Source: Massalongia carnosa (Eukaryota). Taken from it: 64,000 nucleotides of DNA. The notes below the pieces were generated by a model that worked only from the letters and a program-made list of their open reading frames with translations, did not search any database and was not told the DNA's origin. The stretch is taken from contig OZ287073.1 of the NCBI GenBank assembly GCA_965645245.1, positions 1 to 64,000 of the forward strand. Direction: 5' to 3'. The translations under genes and the position numbers were made by a program. This document shows positions 20,740 to 20,852 of the stretch, one piece after another (the stretch's first letter is position 1; the number at the start of each line of letters is the position of its first letter).

Positions 20740-20852
20740 TTGGGGTTGGGAGTTTTTCCCCTCACTGCTGCCAAAACAAAGCCATTATAGGAGGTGCCCT
20801 CAGCAAAAGTGAGCGCCAGCAGGGCAGCAGCGAGGGGAGAGTTGCCCAAACA
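20740..20852 (+). ncRNA. Putative conserved 3' structured RNA element of YR element 1
   Basis: TTGGGG-TTGGGAGT, stem 20756-20772 pairing with 20823-20839, then GCCCAAACA. Confidence 0.65.

Follow-up and report, generated by a model that had tools for sequence, protein, structure and literature searches.

A hairpin with selected pairing in the B repeat of Ngaro-type retrotransposons from Massalongia carnosa

Introduction

The question raised by this locus is which function is served by a hairpin that follows the YR stop in several retrotransposon families and keeps its pairing while its stem sequence changes. The locus comprises positions 1 to 64,000 of contig OZ287073.1 of Massalongia carnosa (GenBank assembly GCA_965645245.1) and is referred to here as the window. 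In a preliminary description of the window, the hairpin was taken for the 3' end of all YR elements and for a cis-acting RNA element of RT recognition, priming, template switching or packaging, with retron msr and hepadnaviral epsilon as tentative, loose analogues. For the DIRS order, the primer is given as unknown in the part of PMC7192593 that treats priming, in which the 3' hairpin of DIRS-1 is cited as a self-primer proposed by Poulter and Goodwin. For DIRS-1, the only YR retrotransposon that has been bench-tested, priming and the rebuilding of ends are likewise given as unknown (PMC7192593). The hairpin of the window is a defined, conserved, and mutable structure that bears on how YR retrotransposons prime and rebuild their ends.

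Four YR elements in the window

Stop-to-stop frames and Pfam matches define four elements in the 64-kb window, each with the gene order gag-like frame, RT with RNase H, and YR. E1 (16465..20890) lies on the + strand, and E2 (28867..33276), E3 (36885..41870), and E4 (44741..49069) lie on the - strand. Among the 14 frames scanned with Pfam, the element frames matched RVT_1 and RT_RNaseH, and the YR frames matched Phage_integrase weakly; a methyltransferase family was not found in these frames at E<=0.01. In an alignment of the YRs of E1, E2, and E4 with 11 homologues, the residues R175, K216, H288, R291, W314, and Y322 are invariant. The YR of E2 has 1462 homologues at E<=1e-5. The YR region of E3 is broken, with no frame of at least 200 aa between 37069 and 38507. 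As the coding DNA of E1-E4 shares only about 64-69% identity where it can be aligned at all, the elements represent four families and not four copies.

E2 has a length of 4410 bp, the layout A-internal-B, exact boundaries, and intact frames for gag, RT-RNaseH, and YR. Contigs from four public runs contain its empty-site joint (28866>33277, with 0 shared letters), the joint of its 3' to its 5' end, which is the B|A junction (33276>28867), and a short form in which 29014 to 32921 is skipped and replaced by 39 other letters. The B|A junction of E2 (33276 to 28867) reads as a perfect 14-bp palindrome, GAACTAG|CTAGTTC, which is a plausible candidate for the core site of the recombinase. In one public run, read depth across E2 was about 12-15 times that of its flanks.

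E4 has a length of 4329 bp and the same A-internal-B layout, and it resides inside a copy of another transposon. Its ends were set by comparison with an uninterrupted second copy of this host transposon at about 11870; compared to this empty paralogous site, E4 is inserted without a target-site duplication and has AGA on both flanks. The end of the host transposon is present in two copies that are 94-98% identical, at 10674-12069 and at 43545-44740 plus 49070-49271, the latter being split by E4. The 5' leader of E4 (48831-48969, - strand) contains a 74-nt tandem duplication, every unit of which holds CCATCTCA, and this motif is complementary to the first eight bases of E4, TGAGATGG.

The ends of E1 and E3 are approximate; for E1, they were assigned from a weak resemblance to those of E2. 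Split direct repeats were not found inside E1 and E4. On the 3' side of the E1 structure, the DNA (20853-20900, GTTCAGCTGACACGATGG) is similar to the 5' start of A in other families (GGTTCAGCTTGACTGAAGG in locus L013) and is unlike the A region of E1 itself; possibly, E1 is located at an older element's junction. Upstream of E1, a 137-bp tandem duplication (14967-15238) and a pair of repeats with 66% identity (2889-3860 and 15485-16450) are present.

A mini-element at 23701..24228 (+ strand) is made up of 176 nt from the start of E4 (A), an unrelated linker of 54 nt, and the last ~298 nt of E4 (B), and its B part starts at the second TGGG motif, as TGGGCGT. Elsewhere in the window, the stretch 49565-55952, in which frames of 583 and 1338 aa lie between identical direct repeats of 234 bp (49565-49798 and 55719-55952), probably represents a young LTR retrotransposon, and a diverged relative is found on the other strand at 61006-63994.

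Hairpin copies behind the YR frames

The preliminary description had listed five copies of the structure, each with two TTGGG motifs, a stem, its complementary arm, and a single CCCAA motif, and all five are present, far above the expectation from shuffled sequence. The copy of E1 (20740..20852, + strand) consists of a first TTGGG (20740-20744), TTGGGAGT as second motif (20746-20753), a stem of ~18 bp, and GCCCAAACA (20844-20852); its MFE is -51.6 kcal/mol (z=-4.38), and none of 200 dinucleotide shuffles was as stable. The copy of E2 (28904..29023, - strand) opens with TTGGGGATTGGGAGT (29023-29009), which is followed by a stem of ~25 bp and GCCCAAACA (28912-28904); again, 0 of 200 dinucleotide shuffles were as stable (z=-4.54). 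In the copy of E3 (36920..37068, - strand), TTGGGGTTTTGGGAGT and GCCCAAACA enclose a stem with a branched interior, and here 8 of 200 dinucleotide shuffles reached the same stability (z=-2.21). The copy of E4 (44820..45050, - strand) is an inverted repeat with TTGGGCATTCCATTGGGCGT, an outer stem of 17 bp around a branched interior of 160 nt, and GTCGTTCCCATGCCCAATCA, and a partner is available for both of its TTGGG motifs (z=-5.67; 0/200 dinucleotide shuffles as stable). The fifth copy, in the mini-element (23931..24148, + strand), is 97% identical to that of E4. The double TTGGG had been ascribed to this copy as well, which proved incorrect: it starts with TGGGCGT and lacks the first TTGGG.

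The pattern TTGGG-N(1-9)-TTGGGNGT matches four times in the 64 kb at a shuffled mean of 0.05, and GCCCAAWCA matches five times at a shuffled mean of 1.10; neither count was reached in any of 100 shuffles. Beyond the reported copies, neither TTGGG-N-TTGGGNGT nor GCCCAAWCA occurs in the window. The second TTGGG pairs with CCCAA in all five copies. Inside this foot helix lies an internal loop in which a conserved AGT (CGT in E4) stands opposite G, and beyond the loop extends a long stem, the sequence of which differs in every element. The foot helix and the conserved internal loop would hold the long stem in place.

The first motif starts 16 nt (E1) or 27 nt (E2) past the stop of YR. The structure had been regarded as the end of the element; this does not hold, because a tail of 37 nt in E2 (to 28867) and of 79 nt in E4 (to 44741) follows downstream of the hairpin. 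The motif GACACGA on the 3' side of the structure was considered as a target site and dropped, since it lies within E2. A comparison with Rfam covariance models at gathering score, which the preliminary description had named as a check, yielded no family match in the whole window, and at 20600-21000 only two miRNA models appeared, with E=0.3 and 1.8. A ribozyme identity of the hairpin was dropped because of the missing Rfam match in the window.

Relatives and a divergent clade

Metagenome contigs were searched with the YR alignment and without use of the RNA motif, which yielded 79 loci with 38-56% identity (numbered with the prefix L). Poly(A) tails were not found among these 79 loci. In closer relatives, as in the window copies, a TGGG-type motif is followed by a stem with a sequence of its own and by GCCCAAACA or a close variant; this layout was seen in L002, L003, L005, L006, L009, L010, L012, L013, L015, L016, L018, L021, and L046. 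A shorter version of this layout is present in the family of L007, L008, and L014. L007 has full-length head-to-tail tandem copies with a period of about 4558 bp, and L010 contains a mini-element in reverse orientation inside a full element (4178-4565).

Most of the remaining loci, 33 distinct sequences, form a second, divergent clade with a different and highly conserved tail. The tail consists of GCCTGCCT-N5-TGGGAG, an arm, CGGCAGGC, a second GCCTGCCT-N5-TGGGA, the complementary arm, TCCCA, and GGCAAGGGCAGCGGC. It is 116-129 nt long, lies about 30-160 nt past the YR match (L017-L078), and contains a helix GCCTGCC/GGCAGGC, with which a long-range helix would make a pseudoknot. RNAalifold reported only invariant helices in this clade. 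The putative long-range helix has about 68% paired cells, with register shifts. Covariation was seen in single cases, such as GTTACC/GGTAAC versus GTAGCC/GGCTAC in L025. The second TGGGA lies within the loop of the long helix, and the single TCCCA can pair with either of the two TGGGA motifs, as in the window.

The claim that the structure is conserved in all YR elements thus stands for the four elements of the window, the mini-element, and the closer relatives, but not for the distant clade, the tail of which is built differently. Judged by their motifs, the two clades have a common design, which consists of two TGGG motifs, one CCCA partner, and a B repeat that begins at the second motif.

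Selection on pairing

A cross-family alignment with MAFFT was gapped next to the anchor motifs, which broke the register of the arms. Therefore, a permutation test of our own design was applied to the 36-nt arms beside the anchor motifs instead of R-scape on a structural alignment. The test comprised 11 independent families, four from the window (E1-E4) and seven from the metagenome contigs (L002, L003, L005, L015, L018, L046, and L012). The duplex energies of the arms within their own families sum to -371.3 kcal/mol compared to a permuted mean of -239.2 kcal/mol (sd 19.4), and none of 100,000 permutations reached this sum. Individually, E4, L046, and L012 are not the best in their own rows. 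An earlier version with 24-nt arms was noisier, and E4, L018, and L046 were not ranked first in it.

Within the family of L009, L015, L016, and L013, five of 30 pairs have double changes among five sequences; one of these five pairs belongs to the foot helix and has changed from GC to AU in both B copies of L013. In this family, 96% of the cells are paired, compared to 25-56% after a shift of the partners by 1-3 columns. Its covariation score was reached by 0 of 500 shuffles, a test in which kinship alone can beat the shuffles without selection. The alignment of the L005 family is too uniform to be informative: only one of its 40 pairs has changed on both sides, and its covariation term is +0.19. 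Regarding stability, the hairpins of L002, L015, and L018 exceed shuffled sequence, and those of L005 and L003 do not (z=-0.51 and -0.76, respectively).

Among 16 instances, the sense strand folds better than the antisense strand in 14, with a tie in L012 and the opposite in E4, and G-U pairs number 72 in the sense and 31 in the antisense folds. This bias points to RNA or plus-strand DNA as the folded molecule and not to minus-strand cDNA or duplex DNA.

A covariance model, R1, was built from the L009 family alone and searched against 589 kb. All of its 12 matches lie at hairpin sites downstream of YR, five of them being antisense images. Outside its own family, R1 found only L018 (E=0.001) and E1 (E=0.008); with default filters, it missed E2, E3, E4, L002, and the L005 family at E<=10. 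R1 is specific, but its reach is poor.

The pairing of the hairpin is under selection and the sequence of its stem is not. Two assertions of the preliminary description are borne out by these data: stem pairing is kept amid sequence change, as evident from own-arm pairing in 11 families and compensatory changes in the L009 family, and the structure is a selected, structured, cis-acting element, for which its conserved position, arm specificity, compensatory changes, sense-strand bias, and the specificity of R1 all speak.

A function at the level of DNA can be weighed against the same data. Integron attC sites are folded recombination substrates with core sites, and the inverted repeat of the hairpin with its CCCAA/TTGGG ends is loosely similar to them; the hairpin could accordingly be taken for a recombinase site, a cruciform, or the passive insertion of a fold-back sequence. 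This is scarcely plausible. At an attC-type site, crossover would be expected at the foot of the hairpin, but E2 and E4 extend 37 and 79 nt beyond the foot, respectively, before they end, and the reading as a recombination site fails because of this distance. In addition, compensatory and G-U changes keep a pairing that a double-stranded DNA site does not need. As the arm sequences differ in every family, the hairpin is also not a shared mobile insert.

Ngaro architecture

Ngaro elements are defined, among other features, by split direct repeats in the arrangement A1-internal-B1-A2-B2, as stated in the definitions given in PMC3783388 and PMC4157794. By their gene order and the repeats of their relatives, the elements of the window are of this Ngaro type and belong to the DIRS order. 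L008 has the complete arrangement A1-internal-B1-A2-linker-B2 with an A of 439 bp and a B of 182 bp, and L013 has B1-A2-linker-B2. The B1-A2-linker-B2 repeats are thus found in L008, L013, and seven loci of the divergent clade, and in the E2 family through the contig joints. A second B is present downstream in nine of 53 non-identical loci with at least 700 nt past YR. The copies of the window are collapsed, E2 and E4 to A-internal-B and the mini-element to A-linker-B; E2/E4 and the mini-elements would be the two products of the collapse of composites by recombination between their B copies or their A copies.

A2 and B2 are separated by a linker that has no relation to the internal region and in which short motifs recur across families, namely a T-run and CCCRCCCACCC at its start and, at its end, GTCGCTTAGATAGA in the window clade and ATGCGCCCNCATTGCCA in the second clade. 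Linkers lie at 23877-23930 in the window, at 7698-7785 in L008, at about 3830-3867 in L013, and upstream of B2 in L029, L031, L036, L048, L049, L058, and L071. On either side of the B|A junction stand short inverted repeats such as CCACTAG...CTAGTGG, TCGCTAG...CTAGCGA, and AATTGG...CCAATT, which were seen in L007 (3990-4060), near the 3' end of L012, in loci such as L058 (1440-1480), and at the starts of L029 and L069. In many families A starts with ATGG, and two contigs begin exactly at the B|A junction.

The edge of the B repeat

B2 starts at the second TGGG in every composite or mini-element examined (12 of 12, from 11 families). In the window clade, these are the mini-element of the window, the E2-type mini-element found in four runs, L013, L008, and L010; in the second clade, they are L029, L031, L036, L048, L049, L058, and L071. 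The 5' foot of the hairpin is thereby also the 5' edge of the repeat B, which is consistent with the priming or template-switch option named in the preliminary description.

Within an element or family, B1 and B2 are 95-100% identical, whereas B is wholly different between families. The B block is therefore re-copied from one template in each cycle, and we infer that its edge is a point at which reverse transcription starts or changes its template. The foot of the hairpin probably marks such a start or switch point for the copying of the element, as far as can be judged from the repeats. The more encompassing reading, to which we give even chances, is that the hairpin forms the conserved core of the Ngaro B repeat and acts as a cis element in the 3' UTR of the sense strand that marks the point of priming or strand transfer. 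The edge could also be a mere limit of the cis-required region that autonomous and non-autonomous partners have in common.

As a recognition or packaging signal only, the hairpin would be bound by RT or Gag to select the RNA, with neither a start nor a switch of synthesis taking place there. The unpaired AGT, G, and ACA are conserved beside a stem of free sequence, as in protein-binding hairpins, the sense strand is favoured, and the whole structure is kept in the mini-element, all of which would suit such a signal. It is nevertheless unlikely to be the whole function, because it explains neither why B2 has its edge at the second TGGG in all 12 cases nor why the motif is duplicated, and because B2 of the divergent clade retains only the 3' arm of the long helix. 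In this clade, B2 consists of just the 3' arm and a small TGGGA/TCCCA hairpin, which is closed where the end of the linker pairs with GGCAAGGGCAGC. Pairing between linker and tail is consistent in the divergent clade and not consistent in the window clade.

The sharp edge could also be made by the start of the plus strand, with the G-rich first motif acting like a polypurine tract and B beginning with plus-strand DNA, as U3 does in LTR elements. In the window clade, TTGGGG precedes B1, and the linker before B2 ends purine-rich (AGATAGA). A purine tract directly upstream of the repeat edge is, however, not common to all members: the window clade is G-rich at this position, and the divergent clade is pyrimidine-rich (GCCTGCCTCGCAC|TGGGA). 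A start of the polypurine type is disfavoured because of these pyrimidine-rich bases before B1 in the second clade; moreover, a primer tract would not need a covarying hairpin downstream. A plus-strand start site is thus quite unlikely.

Formation of the 3' end or stability of the RNA would be a further task for the hairpin, the folds of B1 and B2 choosing the poly(A) site and thereby allowing a read-through RNA that contains B1-A2. AT-rich stretches resembling poly(A) signals (AATATAA, AATTATATA, and AATAAA) lie within 15-25 nt past the structure, and B1 and B2 differ in their upstream context. Such a control of 3' ends does not by itself explain the sharp boundary of the repeat at the motif and is considered very unlikely.

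A putative self-primer

The reading of the hairpin as the mark of a priming or strand-transfer point can be put into the following sequence of steps. The second TGGG would be the point of priming or strand transfer, and the hairpin would define it. In the favoured, although unproven, variant, the RNA primes itself: its own CCCA(A) end would pair with TGGG, so that primer and primer-binding site would be built in together, and cDNA synthesis would then open with the last base of the linker. The upstream TGGG, which is present only in the context of B1, would be an alternative partner of CCCAA, and B1 and B2 would fold differently for this reason. Self-priming agrees with the complementarity of CCCA(A) and TGGG, with the sense-strand bias, and with the published statements on the primer of DIRS elements cited above. 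As a tail of 37-79 nt extends past CCCAA, self-priming would need a putative cleavage after this motif.

In its most explicit form, this variant makes the hairpin the primer of Ngaro elements: the RNA would be cut after CCCAA, its end would be held on the second TGGG and be extended by RT, and the first TGGG would capture CCCAA at B1 and block priming there. We put this forward tentatively and as doubtful in its full detail. If it is true, every new cDNA starts at the edge between linker and B2, and one and the same structure determines where the re-copied repeat begins and ends. Some observations count against the priming or strand-transfer reading, namely that E4 folds better as antisense, that the hairpins of L005 and L003 are no more stable than shuffles, and that B2 was found in just nine of 53 loci. 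Strand-changing joints, which are expected of snap-back cDNA, were not found in the E2 contigs from four runs.

The priming or strand-transfer reading predicts that cDNA ends and template switches lie at the second TGGG. The hairpin occurs both in elements whose genes are intact and in their short non-autonomous partners. Its signature of sequence plus structure could serve to locate Ngaro ends that repeat finders miss in collapsed copies.

Comparison with known systems

In LTR retroelements, the repeats are re-copied in each cycle, and their sharp edges are set by the priming sites PBS and PPT. The B-A unit of the elements studied here behaves like an LTR insofar as its two copies are 95-100% identical. 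Unlike LTR elements, the elements have no PBS of the tRNA type, there is no purine tract before B in the divergent clade, and integration by the recombinase takes place at the B|A junction.

Among fungal LTR retrotransposons, Tf1 and its relatives are self-priming, and the primer of Tf1 is the 5' end of its RNA, paired next to the 5' LTR. In both cases, the primer would come from the RNA of the element itself, folded back onto a complementary site that is part of a larger required structure. In contrast to Tf1, the candidate primer pair lies here in the 3' UTR, and the cleavage is putative.

With DIRS-1, as portrayed in the accounts cited above, the elements share a hairpin near the 3' end of the RNA of a YR retrotransposon and the use of internal sequences to rebuild the ends, which in DIRS-1 involves its internal complementary region. 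DIRS-1, according to these accounts, has inverted terminal repeats and a 14-nt hairpin at its very end, whereas the window elements have a structure of 100-230 nt with conserved foot motifs, which lies 37-79 nt from the end, and split direct repeats.

The closest agreement is found with Ngaro elements, with which the window elements share the order of gag, RT-RNaseH, and YR, the lack of a detected methyltransferase domain and of a target-site duplication, and, in their relatives, the B1-A2-linker-B2 arrangement. Plain repeats are given in the published accounts, in the portions that describe the repeats, and a covarying hairpin in B and a B edge fixed at TGGG were found here. A description of a hairpin in Ngaro repeats was not found in full-text searches of the literature, and an earlier one may stand in Goodwin and Poulter 2004. 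The hairpin in B is a new and well-defined feature of a known class of elements.
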